In this document: positions 19,206 through 51,244 of the stretch, piece by piece
Layout of the letters: each line of letters starts with the position of its first letter
Position numbering within the stretch: position 1 is the stretch's first letter
Origin: an uncultured Christensenella sp.
GTDB taxonomy: Bacteria > Bacillota > Clostridia > Christensenellales > Borkfalkiaceae
NCBI GenBank assembly: GCA_910585235.1
Contig: CAJUCM010000003.1
Location: 15,649-79,648, forward strand
DNA length: 64,000 nt
Direction: 5' to 3'
Position numbers and translations under genes: made by a program
Notes under the pieces: generated by a model
The model's database searches: none
Seen by the model: only the letters and a program-made list of their open reading frames with translations
What the model was told of the DNA's origin: nothing

Positions 19206-20352
19206 AGCTGATCTCCCTTGCCTCGATATAGTACCGCGCGCCGTCCGCTCCGCCGATACATACGGAATACGCGGGGAAAAGTCCACCGTCTCTGATTTCT
19301 TTCAAAAACGTCTCCTTTTTCGGACGGGGCATTACGACGCCCGCGCAGCCCTCTTCCGCAGCAAACTTTTTCAGGCGATCCTCGCCATAGATATATTCCG
19401 CTCTTCCGCCGTCCGCCCTCAGAAATTCCCCGATCGCTTCATCGACCGTACGGACGCTCTCTCTGCCGAACGGGATCTTCAAAGTAAGACAGTTGCCCTT
19501 TCTCTCGCACTTGAATTTTTTTGCAAAGAAATCGCAGAACGCCTCGGCTTCCGTCTCTTTTACGAGTCTGTGCACGGGTTGAAGATCCACCGCGCCGTCG
19601 CTGAGATTGACAAACTCGGCGAGCATGAAGCGCGCGGGGTGCCGACCCATCTGCCCTTTGGAAATTCCCGCCTTAACCTTTTGCCAATGCAGTTTAGCGG
19701 CTTCCGCCGCGGCGACCCCTTCCACGACGTAAAAATTCTGTGCCCTCGACAAGAGCAGGTTCGCGGTATCCTCCGCGATCTCCTCGGTCAGAAAATATCC
19801 CTTGACCGCGCCGCCCGCGACCGGATAATCGTACAGTTCTTCCAAATCCTCTTTCAGAAGAAAATTCACCGCTCTGTCTTTGGGATCGTCGTATAAAACC
19901 ATGATATGCGGCATTTCGATCGGAACGTTTGCCCGCTGAGAGAGATAGTGGCGGACGAGTTCTTCGGGCGCGCCCTGCAAGGAACGCACCTGCCCCTCTT
20001 CCCCGCCGTAGGAGAAGCATTCAAGATCGATCGCCCCCACGATCCCGCGGCGTATTCCCATAGGAGTTCTGCGTTCCGTCAAAACCCAGCCGCGCACGAG
20101 TTTTTCAAGATAGTCGTTTTCGAGCGCCGCATACGCCTCTTCGCGCATACGGAGAATTTCCTCCTCGTCGTTCTCGCCGAGGCGGGCTTCGGGCAAAATA
20201 AAATCGAGCGCGGAGGGTTCAGCCCCGCGCGAAGCGGTCTCGCTTTCCCAATAACTGCGCTCGTTCCGATAGCGGTCGCAAGCGATCGCACACCAATTCT
20301 TCCGCTCCTTCCCAGGGACGAGAATGCGCGGAATATAAAAACAGTTTTTCAT
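19198..20352 (-). CDS. DUF1015-like conserved hypothetical protein
   Basis: The layout recalls DUF1015 (RRGIVGAIDLE.F, IMVLYDDP, PVHRLV, MPRPKKETFL). Assignment is from memory of family motifs only. Confidence 0.45.
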   Translation of the reverse strand: MKNCFYIPRILVPGKERKNWCAIACDRYRNERSYWESETASRGAEPSALDFILPEARLGENDEEEILRMREEAYAALENDYLEKLVRGWVLTERRTPMGIRRGIVGAIDLECFSYGGEEGQVRSLQGAPEELVRHYLSQRANVPIEMPHIMVLYDDPKDRAVNFLLKEDLEELYDYPVAGGAVKGYFLTEEIAEDTANLLLSRAQNFYVVEGVAAAEAAKLHWQKVKAGISKGQMGRHPARFMLAEFVNLSDGAVDLQPVHRLVKETEAEAFCDFFAKKFKCERKGNCLTLKIPFGRESVRTVDEAIGEFLRADGGRAEYIYGEDRLKKFAAEEGCAGVVMPRPKKETFLKEIRDGGLFPAYSVCIGGADGARYYIEAREISYD

Positions 20353-20459
20353 GCCGCGGCACCGAGTACGATGCTGATGATAAACGCAAATCCGATGGCG
20401 ATCAGTTTCAGGGTGATATTCTTCGTAAATAAATTCTTCATGAATTCTTTGAATTTCAT
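20349..20459 (-). CDS. 36-aa single-TM mini-protein resembling only the N-terminal anchor of CdaR/YbbR
   Basis: MKFKEFMKNLFTKNITLKLIAIGFAFIISIVLGAAA. Starts 11 nt after the cdaA stop and ends in an ATGA overlap with the next gene. Below the ORF-track cut-off. Confidence 0.45.
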   Translation of the reverse strand: MKFKEFMKNLFTKNITLKLIAIGFAFIISIVLGAAA

Positions 20460-20469
20460 TGTTCTGTCC

Positions 20470-21309
20470 TCACTTCTTCTCGGCGTTGAATTCTTTCCAG
20501 TAGTAGTCGCGCAGGAACCGTTTCAGGCTCTCGGAATCCACATAGCGGGTAATGTCCCCGCGGCGGACGACGGAGACGATCCCCGTCTCCTCCGAAACGA
20601 TGATCGTGGAGACGTCGGCGACCTCGGTGACGCCGATCCCCGCGCGGTGGCGCGTGCCGTAGTCCTTGGGGAAGTCCCTCTGCGTCAGGGGCAGGAAGCA
20701 ACCCGCCGTCTGGATCCTGTCGCCGTAGATGATCATGGCGCCGTCGTGCAGGGGCGCTTTGGGAATAAAGATCCCTTCGATCAGCTGGTTGGAAATTTTC
20801 GCATTGAGGGAAACACCGCTCTCGACGATCTCCTTGGGGAGATTCCCGTTCGAGAGAACGATCAGCGCCCCGATATTGTTTTTAGAGAGGTTCTGAACCG
20901 CCTTTACGATTCCCGAAATGCACTCGTCCGCGCGGATACCCGCTCCCGACTTGGACTTTGCCGCCGACTCTTTCGCAGGCGACTGGATCCGCGGTCCCTT
21001 ATAGATTCCGCGCTTGATCTCGATACTGAACAGCAACAGAAAGAACATGGATATGATCGTGATAAACAGAAAATATCCGCTCGCCGTAAATCCATCGTGG
21101 AAAAGCGCCAAAACGCCCCCCGCGATCACCAAAAAGTTATACGCAAAAATCAAACGCCCCGCATTGTTCTCCTGCAAGGTCTTGAACACCCAGTAGAACA
21201 TAACGACGAGCATGAGAAATTCGCAGACGAAAGTCCAGTGAAATTCCGTAAAAACTTTCGCGATATTATTCCAGACGTCGCCCGCCTCCACAAAACACAA
21301 ACCGTTCAT
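20470..21309 (-). CDS. cdaA: diadenylate cyclase (membrane-bound, CdaA type)
   Basis: Three N-terminal TM helices plus a DAC domain (GALIVL, PLHDGAMII, GTRHRAGIGVTE, IIVSEETG). Confidence 0.92.
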   Translation of the reverse strand: MNGLCFVEAGDVWNNIAKVFTEFHWTFVCEFLMLVVMFYWVFKTLQENNAGRLIFAYNFLVIAGGVLALFHDGFTASGYFLFITIISMFFLLLFSIEIKRGIYKGPRIQSPAKESAAKSKSGAGIRADECISGIVKAVQNLSKNNIGALIVLSNGNLPKEIVESGVSLNAKISNQLIEGIFIPKAPLHDGAMIIYGDRIQTAGCFLPLTQRDFPKDYGTRHRAGIGVTEVADVSTIIVSEETGIVSVVRRGDITRYVDSESLKRFLRDYYWKEFNAEKK

Positions 21310-21357
21310 TTTCTTCCTCTTGTAATTATTATAACGGATTCCCCCGAAAAATTCAAT

Positions 21358-22353
21358 TTATTTCTCAGCTCCGCCGAAAAAAATTTTTGCAACCGCAAGA
21401 TAAAGCGCGCCCTGCTTGAAAAATTTTCCGCTTTTCGCGCCCGAAGAGAGCGCATAGAGTTCTTCATAGAGTCCGCGCACCCGCTCCGCGCCCAGCCGCC
21501 GCGCCGCCTCCCTGTTCTTTTTGACGGCGTAGGGATTCTGGGACAGCGTCTTTGCGATCTCCTCGTCACTCCCCCGAAGATTCGAGATCGCCGTCAGCGT
21601 TTCAAAATGGGAAACGAGCGAGGACAACAGCGCGTGCTCGTCGAATCCCTTTTTCATAAGATCGTCCATGATCTCCTGAAACTTTGCAAAGTTCCCGCGG
21701 GATGCCGCCTGCGTCATCTCATAAATTTTATATTCCGCATCCTTTGCGACGTACGCTTCGACGTGTTCCCGCGAAACGCGCGCCCCCTCGCCTAAGAGCG
21801 CGGAGAGCTTTTCCGTCTCCGCTTTCATACGGCTCGCGTCGCGGGCGCAGAAGCGCACCATCAGCGCGCAGGCGTCCGCATCGGGCGCAAGCCCCGACTT
21901 CCGCATGAGCGCAAACAGCCAGCGCGAAAGCGTCTCCTCGTCCTCTCTTCCGCAGTCCACATAGACGAGCCCCTTTTTCTTTTTCAGTTCCGCCGTATTC
22001 GCCTTTTTTCCCTCGTTCACGATGAGAAGCACGGTGGAAAGACAGGGCTTTTCAAGATAGGGTGCGACGATGTTCTCCCAATCCCGTTCGGTAGGAAAAA
22101 ACCCGTACGCCCTGACGATCCGTTTTTCGTCGAAAAAGGGCAGGGTATATAGCTCGTCGCGGAAAGAAAGCAGTTTGTCGCCTTTGAGCGTCTCCCCCTC
22201 GTATCTTACGTTATTCAGAAGGGGTTGCGTGATACCGACCGCCTGCGAAACCGCTTTGACCGCCGCGTCGCGGAAATACGCCTCCTCGCCCTCGATGAGA
22301 TAGGCGGGAGCGACGGACTCTTTTAACGATTTTGCAAGCTGGGTAAATTTCAT
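21358..22353 (-). CDS. holA: DNA polymerase III delta subunit
   Basis: About 330 aa. YLIEGEEAYF N-terminus and overall delta-subunit pattern. Confidence 0.8.
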   Translation of the reverse strand: MKFTQLAKSLKESVAPAYLIEGEEAYFRDAAVKAVSQAVGITQPLLNNVRYEGETLKGDKLLSFRDELYTLPFFDEKRIVRAYGFFPTERDWENIVAPYLEKPCLSTVLLIVNEGKKANTAELKKKKGLVYVDCGREDEETLSRWLFALMRKSGLAPDADACALMVRFCARDASRMKAETEKLSALLGEGARVSREHVEAYVAKDAEYKIYEMTQAASRGNFAKFQEIMDDLMKKGFDEHALLSSLVSHFETLTAISNLRGSDEEIAKTLSQNPYAVKKNREAARRLGAERVRGLYEELYALSSGAKSGKFFKQGALYLAVAKIFFGGAEK

Positions 22354-27983: not shown

Positions 27984-28012
27984 TTGCAAACTTTTTTTGA
28001 TTCTGCTATAAT
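27984..28012 (+). promoter_or_regulatory. sigma-A type promoter of BspA-LRR gene 1
   Basis: TTGCAA-17 nt-TATAAT. Confidence 0.65.
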
Positions 28013-28017
28013 TGTCA

Positions 28018-28166
28018 CTGCGATACAATTTTCATATTTTCTTGTGCGTCAATACAACTAAGGCATAGTTGTATCCCTTTTCCTATATTTTGACGCACAG
28101 GAAATTGTATCGCAGCAATTAGGGGACAATATGCAGAGCGTTCCTTAATTGGGGCGCTCTTTTTTT
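28018..28166 (+). promoter_or_regulatory. structured 5' leader: nested three-helix rod plus terminator/antiterminator
   Basis: P1 28018-28031/28102-28115 (14 bp perfect). P2 28044-28052/28090-28098. P3 28053-28060/28066-28073. Terminator stem 28135-28144/28151-28160 plus U6. Alternative pairing 28116-28123 with 28143-28151. Confidence 0.6.
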
Positions 28167-28200
28167 GCGCAAAAAGAAAAAATTTCAGGAGGAGAGAACT

Positions 28201-29712
28201 ATGCACAAATGTTTCAAATGCGGAACGGAGTTCGAGGGCGGCTTCTGCCCCGAATGCGGAACGCGGTTTCAGGAGGAAAAGCACTGCCCGCAGTGCGGCG
28301 CATTGCTTGCGGGGAGCGCAAAATTCTGCAATAACTGCGGATATTCCTTTCTCGAACCCGCAAAAAAGGAAAAGAAGCCGAGCAAGGTCGGCGCGTTTTT
28401 CAAAAAAGTATGGGCGTGGATCAGGGCGCACCTGAAAATCGTGATCCCCTCGGCGGTGGCGCTCGTCGCGGTCGTCGTCATACTTTCGCTCATTCCCACG
28501 TTCATTTTAATGGGCGTGAACGGAACGTATTACGCGTCGCTCGGCGGCGAGCTTTCCGAACAAAATTACGTCACGCTATCTTCGGGCAAGTGGACGGACA
28601 GCGACGGCTTGGAGGGGCGTTATTCGCTTTCGGGTAAAAACATTACGCTCGAATACGAAGATCCCGCCTTGGGCGAATTGGGCGAACTGCTCGGCGGAGA
28701 CGCCGACGCGACCGTCCGTTTGGAGGGAACAATCGAAAACGGCGTTCTGACGCTGAAAGACACGGGACGCGAACAGGTATTTGTTACAAAGAGCCATTCT
28801 CACAGATACGGCGAATGGGAAACAACGCATTCCCCCACCTGCACCGCCGAGGGCGAACAGCAGCGTATCTGCGCCTGCAAAAAGTTTGAAACGGGAAAAG
28901 TTCCACTGACGGGACATACGGCGGTCAATGAAGATTGGCTTTGCACAGCCTGCGGAATGCAATTTACAAAGGGATTGGAATATAAACCGACAAGCGATTC
29001 TTCCGCCTATTCCGTTTCCGAAATCGGTTCGGTTTCGGGCGATATTGTTATTCTCGATTACTACAACGGAAAACCCGTAACAAGTATCGGAGATAATGCG
29101 TTCAGTGATTGCACCTCGCTTACAAGCATAACGATTCCAAGCAACGTGACGAATATTGGAACCGCAGCGTTTTCGGATTGCGACGGACTTACGAGTATTT
29201 ATTATACGGGAGATATTGCAACTTGGTGCGGCATTTCGGGGCTTACCAATCTTATGGCACCCGATCGAACGCTCTATATTGGCGGAAACAAACTCACAGG
29301 CGACCTTGTAATTCCCGACGGCGTGACGAATATCAAAAGTGGTGCGTTCGCTGGTTGCAATGAACTTACAAGCGTTACCATCCCCAATGGCGTAACAAGC
29401 ATCGGGGATGGTGCATTCAGCAATTGCAGAGGACTTACAAGCATTACTATTCCCAACTCCGTCACGAGTATCGAAGATTACGCGTTCTATGATTGCAGCG
29501 GACTTACGAGCATTACGATTCCAAACAGCGTAACAAGTATTGGAGAAAGCGCGTTTATGGGTTGTATCGAACTTACAAGCATTACCTTTCAAGGCACAAA
29601 AGAAGAATGGGACGCGATTAAAACAGGTGACTGGTGGAATCATGTTACAGGTTACTACACCATTCAATGCACGGACGGGAAGTGGGATAAAAGGGGCAAT
29701 GAAATTTCATAA
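28201..29712 (+). CDS. membrane-anchored BspA-type leucine-rich-repeat surface protein with an N-terminal double zinc ribbon
   Basis: CFKCG..CPECG...CPQCG...CNNCG, one TM helix, then repeated IGDxAFxxCxxLTSITIPxxVTxI units (~23 aa). ATG at 28201 with SD AGGAGG. Confidence 0.85.
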   Translation: MHKCFKCGTEFEGGFCPECGTRFQEEKHCPQCGALLAGSAKFCNNCGYSFLEPAKKEKKPSKVGAFFKKVWAWIRAHLKIVIPSAVALVAVVVILSLIPTFILMGVNGTYYASLGGELSEQNYVTLSSGKWTDSDGLEGRYSLSGKNITLEYEDPALGELGELLGGDADATVRLEGTIENGVLTLKDTGREQVFVTKSHSHRYGEWETTHSPTCTAEGEQQRICACKKFETGKVPLTGHTAVNEDWLCTACGMQFTKGLEYKPTSDSSAYSVSEIGSVSGDIVILDYYNGKPVTSIGDNAFSDCTSLTSITIPSNVTNIGTAAFSDCDGLTSIYYTGDIATWCGISGLTNLMAPDRTLYIGGNKLTGDLVIPDGVTNIKSGAFAGCNELTSVTIPNGVTSIGDGAFSNCRGLTSITIPNSVTSIEDYAFYDCSGLTSITIPNSVTSIGESAFMGCIELTSITFQGTKEEWDAIKTGDWWNHVTGYYTIQCTDGKWDKRGNEIS

Positions 29713-36466: not shown

Positions 36467-37219
36467 TTAAAAATCAATTTCGTCCGCGTTGAATACGGGA
36501 CCGTCCTTGCAGACCCTTGCGTGTTCACCCTTCGTCGTGTTGCAGACGCATACGAGGCACGCGCCGATCCCGCAGCCCATGCGCTCTTCCAAAGAGACGT
36601 ATAAAGGCACGCCCTTCCCCGCCGCCGCTTTTTTGAGGGCGCGGAGCATGGGAACGGGTCCGCACGATAAAATCACGTCGGGTCTGGCGTTTCCGAAGTC
36701 GTTCATGAACGCATCGACCGCGGTGCCGTGAAATCCTACGCTCCCGTCGTCCGACGCGATTTTGAGTATATCGCTCCGCTCCATTTCGTACTGCATACAC
36801 AGCGCGTCCTTATTGCGGAACCCCATATAGGACGCAATGAATTTATCCTGATTGTAAGCTCTGATCGCGGAAATGAGCGGAAAAATTCCCACGCCCCCGC
36901 CCACGATCGCAACGCGCTTTTCCTCTTCTTTCACAAAAAAGCCGTTGCCGAGCGGAAGAAGCACGGAAATTTGTTCCCCCTGTTTGTAGCTCTCCGCAAG
37001 AAAGCGCGTGCCCGCGCCTTTCAGACGGTAACAGACGGTGATCCGCTCCCCCTCCGTCTTGCAGATCGCAATGGGACGGCGCAGAGGCATTCCCGCAACC
37101 CCGATCATGCAGAACTGTCCGGGGCGCACTTCGATTTTTTCGCCCGCCGTAAATGTCAGCGAATAAATATCTTCCGCAATGCGGATATTTTCTAAAATAG
37201 TCGCCGTTACTTCCTTCAT
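36467..37219 (-). CDS. pyrK: dihydroorotate dehydrogenase electron-transfer subunit
   Basis: FAD/NAD-binding barrel (RRPIAIC, GGGVGIFPL) and a C-terminal 2Fe-2S motif CGIGACLVCVC. Start set at MKEVTATILE. Confidence 0.85.
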   Translation of the reverse strand: MKEVTATILENIRIAEDIYSLTFTAGEKIEVRPGQFCMIGVAGMPLRRPIAICKTEGERITVCYRLKGAGTRFLAESYKQGEQISVLLPLGNGFFVKEEEKRVAIVGGGVGIFPLISAIRAYNQDKFIASYMGFRNKDALCMQYEMERSDILKIASDDGSVGFHGTAVDAFMNDFGNARPDVILSCGPVPMLRALKKAAAGKGVPLYVSLEERMGCGIGACLVCVCNTTKGEHARVCKDGPVFNADEIDF

Positions 37220-38118
37220 ATGTCCCCCAATACCGAGAGCAAATCTTTCTTCATATCGAGGCACGCTTCCCGCGCAGCCTCGTAATATTTGCCGCCGCGC
37301 TTTTTGTAGGCGCAGAGGATCCCGCGCGAATTGTTGACGACGCCGCCTAAGCCGTTCCGATCGAAACAGTTTTTGAGCATTTCGGCATTCGCGCCCTGCG
37401 CGCCGTAGCCGGGGACTAAAAAGAACGTGTGCGGCAACCGCTCGCGCAGGACTTTCGCCTCTTCGGGATAGGTCGCCCCGACAACCGCGCCGACCGCGGA
37501 ATAGCCGTATTTGCCGACCGTGCCTTTGCCCCACTCTTCCACCATGTCGCCCATGCACTCGTAAACCGTTCTGCCGTCTTGGAGTTTCAGATTCTGCAAT
37601 TCGCCCGACGAGGGATTGCTCGTTTTAACGAGTACGAAAATTCCCTTGTCATGCGCTTTACACTCCTCCGTAAAGGGGACGATCCCGTCCGAACCCAAAT
37701 AGCCGTTGACCGTTAAAAAGTCGCTTTCAAACGCCGTTTCCTCAAAGTCGTTCACCGTTGTTTTGCCGAGGAACGCCGCCGCGTAACGGGAAGCGGTCGC
37801 GCCGATGTCGTTGCGCTTTGCGTCTGTAATGACGATAAGCCCTTTCTTTTTCGCATAAGCCAAGGTCTTTGCAAACGCCTTTAACCCCGCCCTGCCGTAC
37901 TGCTCATAATAGGCGATCTGCACCTTCACGCTCGGCACGACGTCGCAAACGGAATCAATGATATTCTTGTTAAATTCAAGGATCGCGCCCGCCGCGTCCT
38001 TAAAGTCTTTCACGCCCTTTTTCATGTCGTCGGGCAGATAGTCGAAGGACGTATCGAGCCCTACGCAGGTCGGGTTTTGTTTTTCGATAATTTTTTCAAT
38101 GAGCGTATCGGTGATCAT
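37216..38118 (-). CDS. pyrF: orotidine 5'-phosphate decarboxylase (long type 2 form)
   Basis: CVGLD...DAKRNDIG...LVPGYGAQG motifs. Confidence 0.88.
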   Translation of the reverse strand: MITDTLIEKIIEKQNPTCVGLDTSFDYLPDDMKKGVKDFKDAAGAILEFNKNIIDSVCDVVPSVKVQIAYYEQYGRAGLKAFAKTLAYAKKKGLIVITDAKRNDIGATASRYAAAFLGKTTVNDFEETAFESDFLTVNGYLGSDGIVPFTEECKAHDKGIFVLVKTSNPSSGELQNLKLQDGRTVYECMGDMVEEWGKGTVGKYGYSAVGAVVGATYPEEAKVLRERLPHTFFLVPGYGAQGANAEMLKNCFDRNGLGGVVNNSRGILCAYKKRGGKYYEAAREACLDMKKDLLSVLGDI

Positions 38119-39372
38119 TTATTTCTCCTCGTATTTGATTTCGCCGTCCACGACGGTGTATTTGACTTTGCCGAACACCTTTCTTCCCGCGAACGGGGTG
38201 TTCTTCCCTTTCGAGAGGAAGTCTTTGGGATCGATCGTCCATTCCTCGTTGAGATCGACCGCAGTAAAGTCCGCACGTTCCCCGACTTTGAGTCCGCCGC
38301 CTAAATTCAAAATTTTGCGGGGCGCAAGGCTTATCTTTTCCGCAAGCTCGTTTAAGCTGAGAACGCCGCCCTTGACGAGCGCGGTATAGGAGAGCGCGAA
38401 CGAAGTTTCAAGCCCGCTCATGCCGAACGCCGCATAGTTGTATTCGACGTTCTTGTCGTCCGCATGATGCGGCGCGTGATCGGTGACGATACAGTCGAGC
38501 GTGCCGTCCTTCAAGCCCGCGATGATCGCAAGCCTGTCCTTTTCGGCGCGCAGAGGGGGATTGACTTTGGTGTTCGTATCGAAGTCCTTGATCGCCTCGT
38601 CCGTCAGCGTGAAGTAGTGCGGGCAGGTCTCCGCCGTCACCTGAACGCCGCGCGCTTTCGCTTCGCGGATGAGCTGAACGCCGCTGTAAGTCGAGACGTG
38701 GCAGATATGCACGGGAAGCGACAAACTCTCCGCAAGGCAGATCTCCCGCGCGATCATAATATCTTCCGCCGCGCGGATGCTTCCTTTGAGCCCCGTCAGC
38801 GTGGAATAGTATCCCTCGTTCACGACGCCCCCATCTACAAGCGACTTGTCCTCGCAGTGGCACAGGCACTTCAACCCGAAGTCCGAAGCGTACATCATGG
38901 CGTTCGCCATAATGGAGGTGTTTATCACGCTCACGCCGTCGTCCGAGAGGGCGATTGCGCCCGCCGATTTCATACCGCCGATCGCGGCGAGATTTTCGCC
39001 CTTCTCCCCCTCGGTGATCGCGCCGATCGGGCGCACCTTGCAAAGGTTTACTTCTTTGGCACGGTTGACGATGTAGGAGACGACGACTTTATTATCGCAC
39101 ACGGGGCGCGTGTTGGGCATACAACAGATTTCCGTAAATCCGCCCTTGACGGCGGCTTTCGAGCCTGATTCGACGTCCTCTTTTTTCTCGAAACCCGGCT
39201 CGCGCAGATGAACGTGCATATCCACAAGCCCCGGAAAAACGGTCAACCCTTTCAGGTCGATCCCCTCGCCTTTGATCGAAGGAGCGATCTCTTTGATACA
39301 GCCGTTCTCTACGAGAATATCGACCTTTTTAACGCCGTCCTCAAATACGGCTTCCGCATTCCTGAATAACAT
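38119..39372 (-). CDS. pyrC: dihydroorotase
   Basis: VDMHVHLREPG and the DHAPH motif. Size and position fit a pyr operon. Confidence 0.9.
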   Translation of the reverse strand: MLFRNAEAVFEDGVKKVDILVENGCIKEIAPSIKGEGIDLKGLTVFPGLVDMHVHLREPGFEKKEDVESGSKAAVKGGFTEICCMPNTRPVCDNKVVVSYIVNRAKEVNLCKVRPIGAITEGEKGENLAAIGGMKSAGAIALSDDGVSVINTSIMANAMMYASDFGLKCLCHCEDKSLVDGGVVNEGYYSTLTGLKGSIRAAEDIMIAREICLAESLSLPVHICHVSTYSGVQLIREAKARGVQVTAETCPHYFTLTDEAIKDFDTNTKVNPPLRAEKDRLAIIAGLKDGTLDCIVTDHAPHHADDKNVEYNYAAFGMSGLETSFALSYTALVKGGVLSLNELAEKISLAPRKILNLGGGLKVGERADFTAVDLNEEWTIDPKDFLSKGKNTPFAGRKVFGKVKYTVVDGEIKYEEK

Positions 39373-39381
39373 ATCTCCTCC

Positions 39382-40290
39382 TTATTGAACGAGCGCTTTG
39401 AACACCGCCATTCTGACGGCAAGTCCCGAAAAGACCTGATCTTCGATTTTACTCTGCTCCCCGTCGATGACCGAGGAAGTGAGCTCCACGCCGCGGTTGA
39501 CGGGCGCGGGGTGCATGACGATCGCGTTTTTATCCGCATAGCGCAGAATTTCGTCGTTCACGCCGTAGTATTTTGCATATTCGCCGAGCGAGGGAAAGTT
39601 CCCCGCGTGCTGGCGTTCGAGCTGAATCCTCAGCCCCATAACGACGTCTGCTCCCTCGACCGCCTCCTCGCGGGAGGAACAGACCTTTGCGCCCATTTGA
39701 CCGATGTCCGTCGGCATGAGCGTGCGGGGCGCATAGAGCCGTACTTCCGAGCCGAGTTTTTTCAGTCCGAAGAGATTGCTTTTGGCGACGCGCGAGTGCG
39801 AAATATCGCCGAGGATCGCAACTTTCAGTCCGTCCAATCTTCCGAAATGCTCTTTCATGGTGAGAAAGTCCAGGAGCGCCTGCGTGGGGTGTTCGTTCAT
39901 GCCGTCGCCCGCGTTGATGACGTGCGCCCTGACCGTTTTTGCAAGCAGACGCGGCGCGCCCGCGACGGGGTGGCGCAGAACCATGAAATCGTTCTGTTGC
40001 GCGTCGAGCGTCTTGCCCGTGTCGATGAGCGTCTCCCCTTTCTGCACGGAGGAATTGCCTACGCCGAGGTTGATAACGTTCGCCCCCAAATTCTTTGCGG
40101 CGAGGTCGAAGCTGCACCGCGTGCGCGTGGAATTTTCATAGAAGAGGGTGACTGCGGATTTTCCCGCAAGATCGGAAAACTGTTTTTCCCCTTTCTTCAA
40201 GCGCGCCTTGATTTTTGCGCCGTCATCGACGAGGGACAAGATCTCCTCCGCCGTCAGGTCGATAAGACCCAGCAAGTCCTTACGTTTCAT
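39382..40290 (-). CDS. pyrB: aspartate carbamoyltransferase catalytic subunit
   Basis: STRTRCSF, HPTQALLD and HPAPVNRG motifs. Confidence 0.93.
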   Translation of the reverse strand: MKRKDLLGLIDLTAEEILSLVDDGAKIKARLKKGEKQFSDLAGKSAVTLFYENSTRTRCSFDLAAKNLGANVINLGVGNSSVQKGETLIDTGKTLDAQQNDFMVLRHPVAGAPRLLAKTVRAHVINAGDGMNEHPTQALLDFLTMKEHFGRLDGLKVAILGDISHSRVAKSNLFGLKKLGSEVRLYAPRTLMPTDIGQMGAKVCSSREEAVEGADVVMGLRIQLERQHAGNFPSLGEYAKYYGVNDEILRYADKNAIVMHPAPVNRGVELTSSVIDGEQSKIEDQVFSGLAVRMAVFKALVQ

Positions 40291-40780
40291 TTTTTCTCCT
40301 TATGATCGAGAAGCAATCGGGAGCGCCAAGCTCTTCAAAGCTCACCTCGATATATTCGTCTTTGGACGCGGGCGCGTTTTTCCCCACAAAGTCGGCGCGC
40401 ACGGGAAGTTCCCTGCCCCCTCTGTCCACGAGGACGAGAAGCTGTATCTTTTTGGGATTTCCGAGGCGGAAGAGCGCGTCCACGCTTTTGACCGTACTCT
40501 TGCCCGTATAGAGCACGTCGTCGCATAAAACGACGGTTTTTCCGTCGATCGAAAAACCGAGCTCGTTATTTCCCGCGTCGGGATCCAGCCCTGCCAGAGG
40601 AAGGGTAAACCCCTCCGTATCGCGGATATAGTCGCGGATACGCCCCGCGACGATCCCCCCGTTCTTTTTTACGCCGACGAGCACGATATTGGAATAGCCC
40701 TTGTTCCTTTCCCCGATCTCGTGCGATAAGCGTATCACCGTGCGGTGAAGCCCCGTCGCGTCCATTAAAGTTGCGCCCAT
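40280..40780 (-). CDS. pyrR: bifunctional pyr operon regulator / uracil phosphoribosyltransferase PyrR
   Basis: PRTase motif VVLCDDVLYTGKS and VDRGGRELP. First gene of the pyr operon. Start set at MGATLMD. Confidence 0.88.
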   Translation of the reverse strand: MGATLMDATGLHRTVIRLSHEIGERNKGYSNIVLVGVKKNGGIVAGRIRDYIRDTEGFTLPLAGLDPDAGNNELGFSIDGKTVVLCDDVLYTGKSTVKSVDALFRLGNPKKIQLLVLVDRGGRELPVRADFVGKNAPASKDEYIEVSFEELGAPDCFSIIRRKNET

Positions 40781-40825
40781 ATTTCCCCCTTCGATCCGTT
40801 GTTCGGATCTCTGTTTTTTCCGTAC

Positions 40826-40935
40826 AAAAAAAGAGTCTTGCGCACCGCAAGACCCCGGAACAGTTTCATCCTGCAAACAGTTTCTTTCGTCGGCATCACG
40901 GTACCGCCTTATCTGAAAGAATTGTATCATATCCG
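40826..40935 (-). promoter_or_regulatory. pyr leader with attenuator terminator (probable PyrR-binding leader)
   Basis: Minus strand reads GTCTTGCG-GTG-CGCAAGAC followed by TCTTTTTTT (40826-40853), preceded by CUUUCAGAUAAGGCGG, which resembles the PyrR binding-loop consensus (UCCAGAGAGGCU). Confidence 0.55.
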
Positions 40936-40954: not shown

Positions 40955-41644
40955 TTATCCGATTTGCACGAGCTGAAAGCGAAGTTTATCGCAGGAGGTA
41001 AGGTAGTATTCGATCCCGTTCTTCTCCGATTTCAGCGGATAGTACCCCGCCCCGTGCAGATGCCCGAACACAACCTTTGAAACCCCCTTCTCCTCGAAGA
41101 GATCGGTGAAGAGCGTATCCTCTTTTTTAATGCCCGTGGGGGGATAGTGCATGAGAACGATCAGCTCGTCCCCCTCGGCAAGAATTTTTTCCGCATCTTT
41201 GAACGCAAGGCGGAACCGCTCCGCTTCGCGCAGATACAGCGTCATATCGTGTTCGGAGAAGTCCGCGCTTCCGGGGCACGCCCATCCGCGGGAACCCGCG
41301 ATCACATATTTCCCGATCTTTACGCAGTCGTTCTGCAAAAACGTACAGTCGGGCGCGCCCGCTCTGACGCGGGAGATCCCGTTCCACCAATAGTCGTGAT
41401 TCCCCCGAACGAACACTTTGCGCCCTTTGAGCGCGGAGACCGCGCGCACGTCGAACAGCCCCTCTTCGATTTTCATTCCCCAGGAAGTATCTCCGCCGAT
41501 AAGAACAACGTCGTCGTCATCGACTTTTTCCTGCCAGTCGGCTTTGATTTTATCGAAATGCCCTTCCCAGCCGGGACCGAACATATCCATCGGTTTATCC
41601 GCCAGCCCGGAAAGGTGAAGATCGCTTATCGCAAACAGTTTCAT
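40955..41644 (-). CDS. calcineurin-like metallophosphoesterase
   Basis: MKLFAISDLHLSG, GGDTSWG, RGNHDYWW and GHLHG motifs. Confidence 0.85.
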   Translation of the reverse strand: MKLFAISDLHLSGLADKPMDMFGPGWEGHFDKIKADWQEKVDDDDVVLIGGDTSWGMKIEEGLFDVRAVSALKGRKVFVRGNHDYWWNGISRVRAGAPDCTFLQNDCVKIGKYVIAGSRGWACPGSADFSEHDMTLYLREAERFRLAFKDAEKILAEGDELIVLMHYPPTGIKKEDTLFTDLFEEKGVSKVVFGHLHGAGYYPLKSEKNGIEYYLTSCDKLRFQLVQIG

Positions 41645-41792
41645 AAAAAAATTATAACACGCCAAAGGGCAGAAGTCAATCGATTCAAAGCGCCGCCGTT
41701 CAGGGCACACGCGCCCGCCCCGAATCAAAAATTATTTGTCAATTTTCGGTCAAACCGTTTACTTTTTATCTTTGATATGTTACAATGAACGT

Positions 41793-41980
41793 GCGACAAT
41801 ACTCAATTTTTTTCCGAAACCCTGCGTTTTGGTTTTTTTTGCGTATGCAATGGGATAATATCGGTAGTTTATACGGTATCGCACCCATTACAGCATTAAA
41901 CGCAGGTAATGATTGAGTAGTGTCGCAACTATGCGAGAGGTATAGGCTATATGCCGTCTCGCATGGGACGGCATTTTTTT
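41793..41980 (+). promoter_or_regulatory. structured 5' leader: nested helices plus terminator/antiterminator, same design as 28018-28166
   Basis: Weak promoter TTTACT-17-TACAAT (41758-41786). P1 41793-41807/41912-41926 (15 bp, one mismatch). P2 41821-41829/41898-41906 (9 bp). P3 ~41846-41854/41884-41892. Terminator 41951-41958/41967-41974 plus U6. Antiterminator 41929-41938 with 41957-41966. Confidence 0.6.
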
Positions 41981-41999
41981 ATTTTAGGAGGGTTTCAGA

Positions 42000-43904
42000 A
42001 TGAAACGCAAAATCTATCTCACTCTACTTGCACTGATCTGTGCGCTCTGCTGTGCTTTCGCTTTGATCGCCTGCGGCGATGAAAACGACGGTAACAACGG
42101 CGACGGCGGCGAAACGACGGTCTATGAAAAAACGTCGATCGCGCACACGCCGCAGGGCGGGAGCGCGGCGGCGCATAACTGGGATCGGCAAAACCGGTGT
42201 TCCGTATGCGGATACGAACTCGAAGTCACCGACGGTCTTGTGTACACCGAGACGGAGGGCGGATATTCCGTCGCGCTCGGAACAATGGACGGAGAGAACT
42301 TTACGGGCGCGGACGGCATTGAAAACGCAGAAGAAATCGTGATCCCCGCATACTACAACGATCAACCCGTAGTACATATCGGCGACTATAATACGAACTG
42401 TTTCTGGGCGGGTTCTTTCAAGACGCTCACCGTTCCCAATACGATACGTTCGGCGGACGATTATGCTTTTTATTACTGCGGAAATCTGGAAACGGTATAT
42501 TTGGGCTGCAACGTTTTTAACGGAATGTTTTACGAAGTCAGAACGCTGAAAAACGTCTATCTGTCGCCCGACATTACTAAAATCGGCGAGGGCGCGTTCA
42601 AGTCCTGTTCTTCGCTGGAAAGCGCGATCATTCCGGACAGCGTCACCGAACTTAGCAAAGAAGCCTACTATTATTGCTTCGCCGTAACAGAATTGAAGAT
42701 CGGCGCAGGCGTTACGGCAATTCCCGAAAACGCGTTTACGTCCTTACGGCACATTACGCGCGTAGAAATTCCCGCGGGCATACGCTCCGTCGGCAAAAAC
42801 GCGTTTGCGCAATGCTACAAACTGGTGGAGATATACAATCTTTCATCGGTGGAAATCGCAATCGGCGACGAAAGCGCGGACGGGTGCAAAGCGGGCGACT
42901 ATGCGCTGAATATTTTTACCGCAACTTCGGGCGCCGCCGGAACGTTCTTTGAAGAGAACGGATTTGAATTTTACAGGATCGCCGACGACGTGAGCCTGAT
43001 CGGTTACAGCGGTTCCGAAGAAATAACCGCTCTGCCCGCAAGCGTAAACGGCGGGAATTACAAAATCCACGCGCACGCGCTTGCCCATGCGCCCGTCACC
43101 GATCTGGAAATCGGCGCAGGGGTCACCGAAATCGGGCAGTACGCTTTTTCGGGCTCGGAAACTTTGCAATCCGTTAAAATCGGCGACAGCGTTACCGAGA
43201 TTCCCGCCGGCGCGTTTTCAGGGTGTCCGTCGCTCAATTCCGTAGAGCTCGGCAAAAAAGTGCAGACGGTGAATTCTTCCGCCTTTTTGAATTGCGGTTC
43301 GTTATTCGAGATAGGCAACTTTTCCGAGACGCTCGAAGTAACGGGTAAAATCGGCGGTATGCCGAATATGCCGTTGAATATTTACACTGCGCCCGAAGGA
43401 AAAGGCCGTTTTGCAACGGTCGGAGAATTCGTATTTTATTCGTTCGGCGACAGAAATCTGCTTTGCAAATACAACGGCGAAGCTACCGCGCTGACCTTAC
43501 CTGCGGATTTTAAGGGAGGAACATACGAAATTGCGCCGGCAACTTTCAAAAATTCTTCGCTCGAATCCGTCACGATCGGCAACGGCGTTACGGAGATCGG
43601 AGAACAGGCTTTTTATTACTGTTCCAAACTCACGCAGGTGACGCTTGGCAATTCGCTTGTCACGATCGGAAATTCCGCCTTCTTCGGATGCACAAGTCTG
43701 GAAAGCATTACCGTTCCCAAGAGCGTCACTTCCATCAAAACAAAAGCGTTTTACGGGAGCGGGCTGAAAACCGCGATTCTTGAAACCCCCACGGGTTGGA
43801 AAAAAAACGGCACCGCAACGGCAGTCGATTTTTCCGACGCGACGAAAGCCGCGACCACGCTTACAAATTCCGCCGCCCGCAACACGTATTGGACAAGAGG
43901 TTAA
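42000..43904 (+). CDS. BspA-type leucine-rich-repeat surface lipoprotein
   Basis: Signal plus lipobox (CAFALIAC), then many IxxxAFxxCxxLxxVxIPxxVTxI repeats. SD AGGAGG. Confidence 0.85.
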   Translation: MKRKIYLTLLALICALCCAFALIACGDENDGNNGDGGETTVYEKTSIAHTPQGGSAAAHNWDRQNRCSVCGYELEVTDGLVYTETEGGYSVALGTMDGENFTGADGIENAEEIVIPAYYNDQPVVHIGDYNTNCFWAGSFKTLTVPNTIRSADDYAFYYCGNLETVYLGCNVFNGMFYEVRTLKNVYLSPDITKIGEGAFKSCSSLESAIIPDSVTELSKEAYYYCFAVTELKIGAGVTAIPENAFTSLRHITRVEIPAGIRSVGKNAFAQCYKLVEIYNLSSVEIAIGDESADGCKAGDYALNIFTATSGAAGTFFEENGFEFYRIADDVSLIGYSGSEEITALPASVNGGNYKIHAHALAHAPVTDLEIGAGVTEIGQYAFSGSETLQSVKIGDSVTEIPAGAFSGCPSLNSVELGKKVQTVNSSAFLNCGSLFEIGNFSETLEVTGKIGGMPNMPLNIYTAPEGKGRFATVGEFVFYSFGDRNLLCKYNGEATALTLPADFKGGTYEIAPATFKNSSLESVTIGNGVTEIGEQAFYYCSKLTQVTLGNSLVTIGNSAFFGCTSLESITVPKSVTSIKTKAFYGSGLKTAILETPTGWKKNGTATAVDFSDATKAATTLTNSAARNTYWTRG

Positions 43905-43960: not shown

Positions 43961-45679
43961 TTAAAATTCGCTATCATCCATGGCTTCCGCATCGTACCTG
44001 CGGTACATTTCGCGGTACGTCTCCATGTCGGAATAGAGCGCGCGGAGCATTTCCATGTATTTGATCCTGTCCTCGGCAAGCTGTGCGTCCGCACGGAGAA
44101 GCGCCTTGTAGTTGCAGTATTTGACGCGCACGCCGAGCCCCGCAAGCACAAGCCCCGCGACGACGCACACGGCGAGCAGAACGATATTCCACGGGTTAGG
44201 GATATATGCGGACAGGAAATTGCACACGATCCCCGCGGCGACGAGGATCGCGCCGAAGATAACCAACAGATAAAAATTCGTATCTTTGATCGCGGCTTTG
44301 GTTCTTTGGCAACGGTCGGTAAGAAATTTTTCGACGTTCTCTTCGTCCCCGTCCGCGTTATCGAGCGCCGTCTTTGCGGAGTATTCCCCGATATGCACGG
44401 AGAGTTTTTCGGCATACTTGCTCCTGTAAGACTTCACATATTCGCGGTAGGCGCGCCGATAGCTCGCTCTGAATTTTTCATAGGAAAACGCGGCGATCTC
44501 TTTTTTGCCCGCAAAGCGTTCGCTCTCCGTCAGCCATTTGAAGAGACATTCCTCCACGTCGAGATCGGAAACGAGCCTGACGTCCTCTTTGACTTTGAGT
44601 TCCATAGCGTCCTCCAAAACGCCCTTCGCCTCGATGATTTTCTCCTGATAGGAAATTTTATCCCTGATCTCGTCCGACTTGGGAGAACGGCAGTATTCCA
44701 CGGCTTCGTCGAGCATATCCGAATAGAACTGCGCGCGCGCCCCGTCGGAACTTCCGCCGACCAGTTTGCGAAGATACGCGGCGACCGCCCCGTTGTTCAT
44801 GGCGCCGAAGAGCGCCCCGTCGAGCGACGCGCACTCTTCGACGTGCTGTTCGATATACTTGAATTTCGGCGGACGCGTCTTCATGACCTCCACATACCCG
44901 GCGGAAATTTTAGAGACGAACGGCGTTTTGTCGCCGTCGGAGATGTTATCGATCCCAAGATAGGCGCGGAGCTTTTCCGCGCCCCGATCCCGATCGCAGA
45001 GCGCAATGACCGCCAAAAGACGCGAAAATTTCTCCTCGCTGCCGACGAGCGGAACCGCCACAAGACGGTCGATCCAGTAATTCTTTTCCGCCTCGTCGCC
45101 GCGGCGGAGCGCGATCAGAAAGTACACCCAACAGCTTCTGCGCTCGTCGAGCTTCAACGCCTCTTCGCGAGCGCGGTCGGCGGCTTCCGTCTCCCCGCGC
45201 TTGCGCAGTTGCAGATCCATCATGACGTGGCTTAAAAAGAAGTACTGCGTTTTCAGATACTGCTTTTCCGCCTGTTCCGCGATCGTCTCTTCCGAGGCAA
45301 GATTTTTCAGTTCGTTATCCACCATGGCGACGAGCATTTTACGCACGTTCTTTTCGCCGTCCTGATGATAGCGCAGTTCGTTTTTCAGTCCGCGGATGGT
45401 TTTATACGCGTTTTCCATGTTCTTGTAGCGTTCCATCATGCCGCGTATTTCGTCCTGCTTGCGGCTGACGCCGTGCAGGATCTCGTCGTCCGATCTGATC
45501 GTCTTGGCGCCCCCTTCCAGCGTTCCGATCGCGGCGTCCTTCATGGCGGCGACGTCGCGGTGCGCGGTGTTCACGGAGGAGACCATCATATTGATCTCGC
45601 TTTTCAGCTGAGCATTTTCGTTCCTGATCTGGTTGACTTTGCTCCGCATTGCATTGACGTCACTTTGCGTAACACTCAT
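43961..45679 (-). CDS. coiled-coil / helical-core / C-terminal 2-TM hairpin protein, paralogue 3 (572 aa)
   Basis: N-terminal heptad-rich ~110 aa. Core YFFLSHVMMDL...RRSCWVYFLIALRRGDEAEKNYW aligns with the other two paralogues. Two TM helices (LLVIFGAILVAAGIVCNFL, IVLLAVCVVAGLVLAGLGV) plus a ~60-aa helical tail. SD GGAGGT, ATGA overlap with the AAA+ gene. Confidence 0.75.
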   Translation of the reverse strand: MSVTQSDVNAMRSKVNQIRNENAQLKSEINMMVSSVNTAHRDVAAMKDAAIGTLEGGAKTIRSDDEILHGVSRKQDEIRGMMERYKNMENAYKTIRGLKNELRYHQDGEKNVRKMLVAMVDNELKNLASEETIAEQAEKQYLKTQYFFLSHVMMDLQLRKRGETEAADRAREEALKLDERRSCWVYFLIALRRGDEAEKNYWIDRLVAVPLVGSEEKFSRLLAVIALCDRDRGAEKLRAYLGIDNISDGDKTPFVSKISAGYVEVMKTRPPKFKYIEQHVEECASLDGALFGAMNNGAVAAYLRKLVGGSSDGARAQFYSDMLDEAVEYCRSPKSDEIRDKISYQEKIIEAKGVLEDAMELKVKEDVRLVSDLDVEECLFKWLTESERFAGKKEIAAFSYEKFRASYRRAYREYVKSYRSKYAEKLSVHIGEYSAKTALDNADGDEENVEKFLTDRCQRTKAAIKDTNFYLLVIFGAILVAAGIVCNFLSAYIPNPWNIVLLAVCVVAGLVLAGLGVRVKYCNYKALLRADAQLAEDRIKYMEMLRALYSDMETYREMYRRYDAEAMDDSEF

Positions 45680-47163
45680 TTTTTACCTCCGTTCCCCGAC
45701 GCGGGGACCGCGCTCGTACTGCCCCATTCGCGCAACTCCCCGATCAGTTCTTTTTTCGTGGCAAGCATGCTCACCGTCTGTTTGAACGCCGCGGCAAGCT
45801 CCTCGAACGAACCCGTTTTTCCGCTCATGTATTCCTCTTCCGCAACGCTCTTGACCGCGGCTTCGATGTCCGCATAGGAGAACCCCTCGGACAGTGCGAC
45901 GAGCCGCTCCGTCTGTTCTTGGTTCAGCGGGAAAGAGAGGCAGAGTTCCGCATACAGCCCGATCGCGCTCGCGCGCTCCTCCCCGTCGGGCAGATCGACG
46001 AAAAAGGTCTCGTTGAATCTTCCCTTGCGGAAGAGTTCGGGCGGAAGTTTGGAAATATCGTTTGCCGTAGCAACGAGGAACACCCGATCCGAATTTTCCT
46101 GCAACCAAAAGAGAAGTCCGCCTAAGATACGCTTCGTCGTATCGTTGTCGCCTCCGCTGTAAAGCTCCTTTTCGATCTCGTCGATCCAGACGACGCAGGG
46201 ACTTACACTGCCGATATAGTCGAGCGAGAGCCTGAGATTTTTTTCGCTTTCGCCCACGTATTTATCGAACAGCGCGCCGATGTCGAAGCGGTACAGCGGC
46301 AAACGCCACCTGTCCGCAATGAGCTTTGCGGAGAGCGATTTTCCGCAACCGGGAACGCCGACCATGAGGATCCCGCGCGGAGGACTGATGTATTTTTTGT
46401 CGAGCGCGTCCTTGGGCGCAAAGAAAATTTTCTCTTTCCGCGCCAGCCACCTCTTGACCCCGTCGAGCCCCGCAACGTGCACGTCCCCTACGTCCACGCG
46501 GGAAACGGCGGCGTTCTTGCCGAACAGCTTATCTTTCTGCATTGCGACCGCGCACAGATTTTCGTAGGTGAACCCGCCCGAAAGTTTATAGGCGTAATTC
46601 ATGACGATATTCAACTGCAAAGCGGTGTAGCCCGAAAGCACCGTGGCGGTCTGGGGGATTTTGCTCTTATCAAGCGTTTTGATCTTATGATGGGCGATAA
46701 ATCCCGCAATCTGCTTTTCGCGCTCCTTCTGCGTCGGCAGATCGAGTTTGATAAACATTCCGAGTCTTCCCAAGCCCCGCCATACGGGATCGGACGTGAC
46801 GACGACGATCGAACTTTTTCTGTCGGAGGCAAGCCTCACGAGCGCGGACATCTTTCTGGAAAACGAATTGTCCGTATCCAGATAGCGCACGTCGCCGAGC
46901 GCAAAGCACTGCCCGCTCTTCTTTTTCAGCTTCTCCTCGATATAGACGAGCGGTTCGCGCGATTCCGCGCTCCTCTCCTCCCGTCTCAGCTCGATAAAGC
47001 CGTCGGTATCGGTATAAAATTCCAGTTCACTGCCGAGCTCTTCCGCCGCGTCTTTGAGCGCCGAACGCGCCCTGTCCCGTTCCGCCGTCATCAGCACGAC
47101 GAGCGGGGTTCGCGCCGCGATACAGGCGGTAAGCTCTTTCACTGTCTGCAAATAATTACTCAT
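45676..47163 (-). CDS. classical-clade AAA+ ATPase (COG0464 / Ycf46-like), N-terminal ~230 aa without Walker motifs
   Basis: Walker A GVPGCGKS, Walker B VVWIDEIE, VGESEKNLR, and second region of homology ATANDISKLPPELFRKGRFNETFFVDLP. Confidence 0.88.
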   Translation of the reverse strand: MSNYLQTVKELTACIAARTPLVVLMTAERDRARSALKDAAEELGSELEFYTDTDGFIELRREERSAESREPLVYIEEKLKKKSGQCFALGDVRYLDTDNSFSRKMSALVRLASDRKSSIVVVTSDPVWRGLGRLGMFIKLDLPTQKEREKQIAGFIAHHKIKTLDKSKIPQTATVLSGYTALQLNIVMNYAYKLSGGFTYENLCAVAMQKDKLFGKNAAVSRVDVGDVHVAGLDGVKRWLARKEKIFFAPKDALDKKYISPPRGILMVGVPGCGKSLSAKLIADRWRLPLYRFDIGALFDKYVGESEKNLRLSLDYIGSVSPCVVWIDEIEKELYSGGDNDTTKRILGGLLFWLQENSDRVFLVATANDISKLPPELFRKGRFNETFFVDLPDGEERASAIGLYAELCLSFPLNQEQTERLVALSEGFSYADIEAAVKSVAEEEYMSGKTGSFEELAAAFKQTVSMLATKKELIGELREWGSTSAVPASGNGGKK

Positions 47164-47169
47164 AATTCA

Positions 47170-47607: not shown

Positions 47608-47611
47608 GATC

Positions 47612-47779: not shown

Positions 47780-47802
47780 TTCCTCAATTCTCCTTACCTG
47801 TA

Positions 47803-51234: not shown

Positions 51235-51244
51235 ATCCTCTCCT

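Follow-up and report, generated by a model that had tools for sequence, protein, structure and literature searches.

In a 64,000-nucleotide (nt) stretch of DNA from an uncultured Christensenella sp. (assembly GCA_910585235.1, contig CAJUCM010000003.1, positions 15,649 to 79,648; hereafter the window), a structured RNA of about 185 bases, which we call leader 1, separates a promoter from gene 1, a gene for a BspA-type leucine-rich repeat (LRR) protein. Leader 1 belongs to a family that is real, previously uncatalogued and specific to genes of BspA-type LRR_5 surface proteins in a Christensenella-like gut lineage. Its members combine a covarying rod-shaped domain with two mutually exclusive helices, an antiterminator and an intrinsic terminator, and the leader most probably works as a factor-dependent transcription attenuator. 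The reading that we favour, with roughly even confidence, is that of a cis-acting 5′ leader RNA through which a trans-acting factor controls the LRR gene by conditional premature termination.

A promoter and a rod-shaped RNA domain precede gene 1

A sigma-70-type promoter lies at 27984–28012 of the forward strand, the strand of all features of leader 1. It comprises the −35 hexamer TTGCAA (27984–27989), a 17-nt spacer and the extended −10 element TGcTATAAT, with its hexamer at 28007–28012; 10 of 12 positions match the consensus and the TG of the extended −10 is present, so that the promoter proposed in a preliminary description of this DNA, made from the sequence alone, is indeed there. Homologues of the main clade (see below) keep TTGCAA with a 17-nt spacer, and a sigma-70-like hexamer pair is also visible in the two distant leaders, L026 and L042. 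From the position of the promoter, transcription is predicted to start at about 28018–28020, in the first bases of helix P1.

The rod domain (28018–28115) consists of three nested helices. P1 (28018–28031/28102–28115) has 14 perfect base pairs (bp) and starts six bases after the −10 hexamer. It is followed on the 5′ side by an internal loop of variable length, here 9 U-rich nt (28032–28040), and then by P2 (28040–28051/28091–28102), of about 12 bp with one G-U. P3 (28052–28060/28066–28074) has 9 bp and a loop AGGCA (28061–28065), and a 16-nt pyrimidine-rich bulge, CCCUUUUCCUAUAUUU (28075–28090), joins its 3′ strand to that of P2. The preliminary description had recognised most of this fold: P1 and the asymmetric internal loops were found as it gave them, its P2 (28044–28052/28090–28098) is right and extends to about 12 bp, and its P3 with the AGGCA loop is present, with 9 bp instead of the 8 assigned to it.

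The segment 28012–28200 folds at −65.2 kcal/mol, against −38.9 ± 4.4 kcal/mol for 200 dinucleotide shuffles (z = −6.0, reached by 0 of 200). The same description recognised no known riboswitch class in the fold, and the 4227 models of Rfam 15, which include all riboswitch classes, T-box, PyrR, 6S and ribosomal-protein leaders, agree with this: no family, tRNA and rRNA included, reaches its gathering score on either strand of the 64-kb window. With expectation values (E) of up to 10, leader 1 and the second leader described below gave only chance matches under the threshold, the best with 24 bits against a gathering score of 64.

Homologous leaders share the structure

Homologous leaders were sought on contigs fetched for homologues of gene 1 with 45–63% protein identity, and by three pattern scans, one for species genomes, one for metagenomes and one for viral contigs; the species and JGI scans required an exact core of 19–20 nt. 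Among 185,579 species representatives of GTDB, a single true locus was found, L014 ('uncultured Christensenella sp. MGBC135946'), together with two chance matches. The JGI metagenome scan gave 39 loci, of which only L042 is real, and the scan of viral contigs for the core gave chance matches only. By the species-genome and metagenome scans, the leader family does not extend beyond a narrow clade.

Nine distinct versions of the leader are available (those of the window, L008, L009, L005, L019, L022, L018, L026 and L042). L008 comes from the same site in a syntenic conspecific strain, with flanks 97% identical. Five main-clade versions occupy two other chromosomal sites in related mouse-gut genomes, one flanked by genes for an M23 peptidase and an aminotransferase (L009, L005, L019, L022) and the other beside an HhH-GPD gene (L018). 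In the distant clade, L026 precedes a zinc-ribbon LRR_5 gene and L042 a lipoprotein gene with Big_2 and LRR_5 domains. All 10 leader-bearing genes seen, including gene 2 of the window, encode an LRR_5 protein, whose N-terminus carries either a zinc ribbon and a membrane span or a lipoprotein signal and Big_2. The leader DNA is conserved far better than the proteins encoded downstream.

The helices of the rod are maintained while their sequences change. Over the nine leaders, standard pairs fill 97.2% of 288 cells, and in 17 of 32 pairs both partners have changed. P1 shows a change from U-A to C-G and five more pairs swapped in the distant clade; P2 occurs in seven different sequences, every one of them paired; in P3, A-U became G-C once and G-U twice. 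Not one of the main measures was attained in 500 column shuffles, and sliding the partners by 1–3 columns lowers pairing to 28–46%. The helices proposed at the outset are therefore conserved and covary upstream of homologous genes. As a check on counts made with a structure-fitted alignment, RNAalifold was also run on the unedited MAFFT alignment of the seven main-clade leaders, and it returned the same P1, P2, P3 and terminator. Moreover, the rod contains eight G-U or U-G cells and a single C-A cell, an excess which indicates that the constraint acts on the sense-strand RNA, not on the DNA or the antisense strand.

The 5′ internal loop is anywhere between 6 and about 60 nt long, and in L005, L019, L026 and L042 it contains small inserted hairpins. 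In L026 (1754–1964) and L042 (5407–5623), an extra helix, GGUUUUC/GAAAACC, and a small hairpin with a U-rich loop occupy this position and make the rod branched. In addition, the sequence just upstream of the distant-clade P1 (ACUAUGCUCAAUGA in L042) resembles the start-codon region of the main clade (ACUAUGCACAAAUG).

A separate observation concerns the two conspecific strains. Their rods (28018–28122 of the window and 2315–2420 of L008) differ at 16 positions in about 105 nt (about 15%), against a divergence of about 2.4% in the surrounding 3.2 kb. Nearly all the differences fall in P1 and P2, with pairing kept. This hot spot suggests recombination among paralogous leaders or selection for diversity of P2; no partner site for the hypervariable P2 sequences was found in the flanks.

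Two mutually exclusive helices form the expression platform

Immediately 3′ of the rod, an antiterminator hairpin spans 28116–28151, in which CAAUUAGGGGAC (28116–28127) pairs with GUUCCUUAAUUG (28140–28151) over 12 bp. Its 12-nt loop contains the outer 5′ strand of an intrinsic terminator (28135–28166), made of AGAGCGUUCC (28135–28144), the loop UUAAUU, GGGGCGCUCU (28151–28160) and six U residues (28161–28166). Nucleotides 28140–28144 and G28151 belong to both helices, which are thus mutually exclusive. The terminator, with its U6, had been correctly located beforehand, and the antiterminator had been recognised in its 28116–28123/28143–28151 part, to which the present analysis adds the remainder of the 12 bp. 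The transcription-attenuation layout deduced from them is also borne out: a promoter, a closed structured domain, and an exclusive antiterminator and terminator kept by compensatory changes.

For these two helices pairs were counted by script on a manual alignment, MAFFT having lost the platform register of L026 and L042. The antiterminator is paired in 95.3% of cells over the nine leaders; two of its pairs are swapped between A-U and U-A from one clade to the other and a third appears as G-U, A-U, U-A or U-G, the changes from G-U to A-U and from U-A to U-G being within the main clade. In the terminator, 97.7% of cells are paired, and between clades five pairs have changed on both sides. That selection has kept both of two exclusive helices is the signature of an attenuator and not of a plain terminator.

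Which of the two helices prevails depends on the RNA folded. The antiterminator is present in the minimum-energy fold of the long transcript. When the RNA is made to stop where the U-tract ends, rod and terminator make up the minimum-energy fold in 8 of the 8 leader-1 variants folded; as a correction, it is the terminator and not the antiterminator that stands beside the rod of leader 1 when the RNA ends there. The terminator state is the more stable by 2.0–7.6 kcal/mol in 7 of 7 variants for which both states were computed, and the antiterminator alone contributes −10 to −15.5 kcal/mol. The only free toehold, AGAGC, pairs with the bases of the terminator that are made last. Since the antiterminator is made first and the toehold matches these last-made bases, the geometry of the two helices predicts that a formed antiterminator should delay folding of the terminator past the U-tract.

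Two additional pairings were considered and set aside. An anti-antiterminator formed by the 3′ strand of P1 (AAUUG/CAAUU, 5 bp) is weak and, on inspection, absent from L026 and L042. A pseudoknot of the bulge or the P3 3′ end (GUAUCC, or GUAUCCC) with the 5′ strand of the antiterminator (GGGGAC, GGGUAC or GGAUAC) could form 5–6 bp in all three lineages and would need P3 to be opened; a pairing of this length is too short to be told from chance.

The platform of the main clade also contains a five-codon open reading frame (ORF), AUG CAG AGC GUU CCU UAA (MQSVP*; 28131–28148), preceded by AGGGGA, which resembles a Shine-Dalgarno (SD) sequence. This mini-ORF spans the antiterminator loop and the terminator 5′ strand, and it is kept in all main-clade leaders (Q or R at codon 2; UAA replaced by UGA in L022), with no equivalent in L026 and L042. 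As regards leader-peptide (ribosome-mediated) attenuation, which calls for a conserved short ORF with an SD of its own, each variable base of the mini-ORF is equally accounted for by helix pairing. Its Pro-stop end could stall ribosomes. An upstream ORF initiated by UUG in L026 and L042 was rejected, its frame not being conserved as a protein.

The platform may extend its influence to translation. In the minimum-energy fold of the long transcript, the 3′ strand of the terminator with the U-tract, CUCUUUUUUUG (28157–28167), pairs with the SD region, CAGGAGGAGAG (28186–28196), over 11 bp, four of them G-U, and in a readthrough RNA in the antiterminator state the SD could be masked in this way. 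On a related subject, contig ends from runs X15 and X17 that abut positions 28197–28201 of the window belong to more paralogues, from the same communities, with a zinc-ribbon N-terminus and differing upstream sequences. In each of these, too, a run of U residues stands about 20 nt ahead of the SD (e.g. CCTTATTTTTTACTACGGAGGG and CACTTTTTTTATTTTAAGGAGG), and leader terminators may be general to this gene family.

An invariant core is complementary to the start region of gene 1

The sequence-invariant core of the leader (28062–28090) is formed by GGCAUAGUUGUAUCC (28062–28076), which covers the P3 loop, the 3′ strand of P3 and the adjoining CC, and by the bulge. This 15-mer is identical in eight of the nine leaders, the distant clade included, with one U to C change in L022, and is the only segment invariant across both clades. 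The bulge that follows it has 15–16 nt and a consensus CC(C/G)UUUU continued by pyrimidine-rich sequence. We propose that the 15-mer and the pyrimidine bulge are a candidate recognition site for the factor.

The reverse complement of the 15-mer matches positions 28191–28205, in the start region of gene 1, whose translation-initiation region (TIR; 28187–28204) contains the SD AGGAGG (28187–28192) and the AUG codon (28201–28203). GCAUAGUU (28063–28070) is perfectly complementary to the AUG-containing AACUAUGC (28197–28204), and the duplex is continued by the SD, which is complementary to CUUUUCCU of the bulge. In the window, the duplex between the rod and its own initiation region has −19.6 kcal/mol (z about −2.8 to −3.0), and in all main-clade variants it has −18 to −21 kcal/mol, with z about −3 against shuffled initiation regions. 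Leader 2 possesses an 8-nt complement of its own, GAAACCCU against AGGGUUUC. Shuffles reach the duplex in 2 of 500 cases for rod 1 with TIR 1 and in 21 of 500 for rod 2 with TIR 2; the crossed duplexes (rod 1 with TIR 2, rod 2 with TIR 1) are no better than shuffles, which makes the complementarity specific to the cognate gene. No other target site was found in the window. This complementarity to SD and AUG is probably an add-on layer, in which the initiation region would be locked once P3 opened.

A second leader in the window

Gene 2 (42000–43904, forward strand), which encodes an LRR_5 lipoprotein, is preceded by an element (41758–41999) that the preliminary description took for a second leader of the same design. 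This is supported by the shared architecture and P1 base sequence and by the match to a covariance model; the invariant P3 core, or 15-mer, is missing. Leader 2 has a promoter at 41758–41786 (TTTACT-17-TGtTACAAT), a P1 at 41793–41807/41912–41926 whose base sequence, UGCGACA...UGUCGCAAC, equals that of main-clade leader 1, a branched interior, an antiterminator (41930–41945/41947–41963) and a terminator (41952–41958/41967–41973) with U7 at 41974–41980, followed by an SD at 41986–41992. The segment 41785–42000 folds with z = −5.5. In leader 2 it is the antiterminator that the minimum-energy fold contains.

The covariance model (R1) was built from the rod and terminator of the seven main-clade leaders. 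With default filters it finds leader 2 at 41792–41980 (30.4 bits, E = 1.4e-4) and with filters off it does so with 22.1 bits (E = 5e-5), in both cases over the full model length; the alignment includes P1, a P2-like helix, a 3′ loop beginning with CCC and the terminator, with the apical domain replaced. R1 also finds L042 (26 bits) and L026 (22.5 bits), and no further match either in the window or in 285 kb of unrelated DNA. The R1 score is the one ground for counting leader 2 as a likely member of the family, and the only close relative of gene 2 (P0122, on a 2.9-kb contig) has no recognisable leader in the 121 nt upstream of it. A Metallophos gene (40955–41728) starts divergently from leader 2.

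Gene 1 and its surroundings

The product of gene 1 (28201–29712, forward strand), 503 amino acids (aa) long, has a double zinc ribbon at its N-terminus, together with a membrane span and an LRR_5 domain of the BspA type. The gene is flanked by housekeeping genes (DUF4011 helicase, UPF0102, RNase HII, YlqF, TrmD and RimM), and a contig of a mouse-gut metagenome-assembled genome (GCA_948904975.1) includes the window. Although from conspecific strains, the gene 1 proteins of the window and L008 are only 56% identical. The central LRR-coding part (28902–29434 of the window against 3202–3650 of L008) has 78% identity or does not align, compared with 94–97% in the flanks, a pattern that points to cassette-like variation of this predicted surface protein between conspecific strains.

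Elsewhere in the window, a pyrimidine-biosynthesis cluster on the reverse strand (36467–40930) contains genes for a Pribosyltran protein, ATCase, dihydroorotase, OMP decarboxylase and a PyrK-like protein. The Pribosyltran protein may be PyrR or a uracil phosphoribosyltransferase, and the Rfam model of the PyrR-binding site has no match anywhere in the window. Large ORFs of 572, 549, 593 and 905 aa follow one another on the reverse strand at 43961–53962, and Pfam recognises none of them at E up to 1e-5. The run also includes an AAA ATPase (45676–47163), just downstream of gene 2. A third leader considered upstream of an ORF at 19906–21795 was rejected, since that ORF is spurious and the opposite strand is coding there.

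Discussion

How might the leader control its gene? Transcription would start at the first bases of P1, and the nascent RNA would fold first into the P1-P2-P3 rod. The 12-bp antiterminator would form next and hold the loop-proximal half of the 5′ strand of the terminator before the 3′ strand exists. Should the antiterminator persist, RNA polymerase would read through into the gene; should it be prevented or displaced, the more stable terminator would form at the U-tract and a leader RNA of about 148 nt would be released. The choice would be set by a trans-acting factor that reads GGCAUAGUUGUAUCC, that is, the P3 loop and 3′ strand, and the adjoining bulge. In the main clade, the opening of P3 would also block translation through the complementarity to SD and AUG, a possible second layer of control.

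As regards the nature of the factor, P1 and the antiterminator do not overlap, the internal loop is variable, the clade is narrow and the genes encode fast-evolving surface proteins, and for these reasons we favour a protein-bound leader over a riboswitch, the two alternatives that the preliminary description had named. An RNA-binding protein specific to the lineage is a more probable factor than a metabolite.

Several observations weigh against the attenuation reading. P1 runs up to 28115 and the antiterminator begins with the next base, 28116, so that the two share no nucleotide, and no conserved anti-antiterminator was found; rod and platform could be independent modules. There is no regulator gene among the neighbours of leader 1 or leader 2. 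The counts on the rod come from a hand-made alignment fitted to the structure, and the sample amounts to nine leaders from closely related genomes. Contigs from RNA-type sequencing runs gave no informative transcript ends, and none of the sampled words was found in metatranscriptomes from the same studies. Finally, the complementarity to the start region is absent in the distant clade (z of +1.3 and −0.5) and for that reason cannot explain the invariance of the 15-mer there.

Some of these observations would suit other explanations. If the leader were an orphan small-molecule riboswitch, the rod would be the aptamer and the ligand would tip the antiterminator, for instance through coaxial stacking of P1. 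The promoter, the closed domain and the antiterminator/terminator layout are those of such a device, invariant unpaired nucleotides adjoin covarying helices, and both the lack of any Rfam match and the lack of nearby regulator genes are in keeping with it. However, P1 stays clear of the expression platform, which leaves out the coupling usual in riboswitches, a 5′ internal loop of anything from 6 to about 60 nt takes up whole hairpins, the architecture is a rod with no junction or pseudoknot fold, leader 2 has no conserved core, and the element is tied to fast-evolving surface proteins instead of metabolism or transport. Its distribution is also very narrow, the scans for the exact 19–20-nt core having given one true match in the set of 185,579 species representatives and one in that of JGI metagenomes. 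The riboswitch is an unproven reading, which we consider unlikely. It is likewise unlikely that the leader is a constitutive 5′ untranslated region (UTR) without a sensor, in which the rod blocks 5′-end-dependent decay or is an RNase III site, a leaky terminator sets a low, fixed level of expression and the complementarity tunes translation. A start at the first bases of P1, as predicted from the promoter, would give a base-paired 5′ end; the rod is a long, nearly continuous duplex that is complementary to its own initiation region and has no nucleotide in common with the platform. A stabiliser, though, needs pairing alone and not a 15-mer and a bulge that stay invariant while the sequences of P1 and P2 turn over, and the compensatory upkeep of a 12-bp antiterminator would make little sense for a merely leaky terminator.

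The terminated product of about 148 nt might itself be a trans-acting small RNA whose bulge pairs with the SDs of other mRNAs, a function compatible with attenuation in cis. Promoter, structure and terminator are the anatomy of a small RNA gene, the terminator state is the most stable one, and the bulge CCCUUUUCCU is single-stranded and resembles an anti-SD. Yet the complementarity is specific to the cognate gene, crossed rod:TIR pairs being at shuffle level, the element is in every case placed directly before an LRR_5 gene and oriented like it, and the window holds no other target site, all of which makes this role quite improbable. A lower probability still, very close to none, goes to an element that acts as DNA, either an invertible switch bounded by P1, like that of cwpV, or a recombination or mobile-element hairpin that moves LRR cassettes. 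The 14-bp perfect inverted repeat, whose base sequence is common to leader 2, the presence of leader-plus-gene units at different chromosomal sites and the swapping of the LRR gene body between conspecific strains would agree with it. Against it, the interior has the same orientation in 25 of 25 fetched leader-bearing loci and in the contigs of every run, and it is a nested palindrome with compensatory changes that an invertible segment does not need; the ratio of eight to one of G-U over C-A favours one RNA strand; and no recombinase gene occurs among the neighbours scanned with Pfam calls, although master invertases can act from afar. The contigs of 10 runs, which can hide rare orientations, show no strand-changing joint at the leader. 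We reject the inverton on the strength of the constant orientation and the lack of such joints in these loci and contigs, the covarying palindromic interior and the G-U bias.

Comparison with known systems

Terminating riboswitches, such as c-di-GMP-I and c-di-GMP-II at clostridial surface-protein and pilus genes, resemble leader 1 in that a 5′ domain closed by a long P1 is followed by exclusive hairpins and then by the SD; those of the c-di-GMP type also share a covarying conserved structure and a link to cell-surface proteins in Clostridia. Leader 1 departs from them in matching none of the 4227 Rfam families at E up to 10, in keeping its P1 off the antiterminator, in being a rod with a length-variable loop, in its narrow taxonomic range and perhaps in having no ligand at all. 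The leaders of protein-dependent attenuation (PyrR, the RAT sites of BglG/LicT, HutP, ANTAR and the NusG paralogues of the LoaP/UpxY type) likewise place a conserved hairpin with an invariant loop or flank, and a terminator, before the first gene. In UpxY/LoaP systems, paralogous loci for surface structures carry related leaders, and the present family also has several paralogous surface loci with related leaders. In RAT and ANTAR sites, whose features are taken here from established knowledge and not from a model search, the protein site overlaps the 5′ strand of the terminator; an ANTAR site consists of two hexaloop hairpins and a RAT of roughly 29 nt. In leader 1, by contrast, the invariant P3 lies about 60 nt upstream of the terminator with no overlap, and inspection of 28116–28160 shows one hairpin only, of 12 bp and with a loop of 12 nt, instead of two with hexaloops. 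Nor does inspection of leader 1 reveal any array of UAG or GAG repeats, and the Rfam models of PyrR and T-box leaders do not match it. The unit is monocistronic and not a long operon, and has no adjacent regulator gene, which also sets it apart from the protein-dependent leaders.

The cwpV switch of C. difficile, whose invertible element separates the promoter from the gene and gives rise to a terminator in one of its two orientations, has in common with leader 1 a promoter, a segment bounded by inverted repeats, a leader terminator, a variable surface-protein gene and a gut clostridial host. Unlike cwpV, leader 1 shows no inversion in any contig or run, its 70-bp segment is palindromic with covariation of the RNA type, and its terminator lies outside the repeat-bounded segment. 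There are parallels as well with translational attenuation of the ermC/cat type and with SD-sequestering leaders, because 28063–28083, itself engaged in a local hairpin, is complementary to SD and AUG, so that alternative pairings exist, and because the main clade has the five-codon mini-ORF (28131–28148) in its platform. Here, however, the ground state leaves the initiation region free, the mini-ORF is restricted to the main clade, and the chief device is a transcription terminator.

Implications for surface-protein expression

Among the predicted surface proteins of gut anaerobes, few are as abundant or as variable as the BspA-type LRR proteins and, to our knowledge, almost nothing has been reported about their regulation in commensal Clostridia. 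The Christensenellaceae are a much-studied, health-associated gut family for which we know of very few characterised regulatory RNAs. The leader family adds to these a covariation-supported motif that Rfam lacks and, with its defined helices, invariant 15-mer and a terminator situated 35 nt ahead of the SD, a mutable handle on when and how LRR surface proteins are expressed and a bait for the factor. If the factor is a protein, the family would define a new antitermination regulon; if it is a metabolite, it would be a new riboswitch class tied to surface remodelling. A bolder and distinctly unlikely proposal sees in the leader a gene-specific riboregulator with two layers, of a new class, that serves a variable LRR multigene family and in which a shared factor, or a gut- or host-derived ligand of an orphan riboswitch, would read the invariant hairpin and bulge, and each copy would have its own anti-SD/AUG sequence and fast-diverging P2. 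Should it be true, such a two-layer switch would turn individual surface proteins on and off, as a post-initiation counterpart of phase variation that operates without DNA rearrangement.

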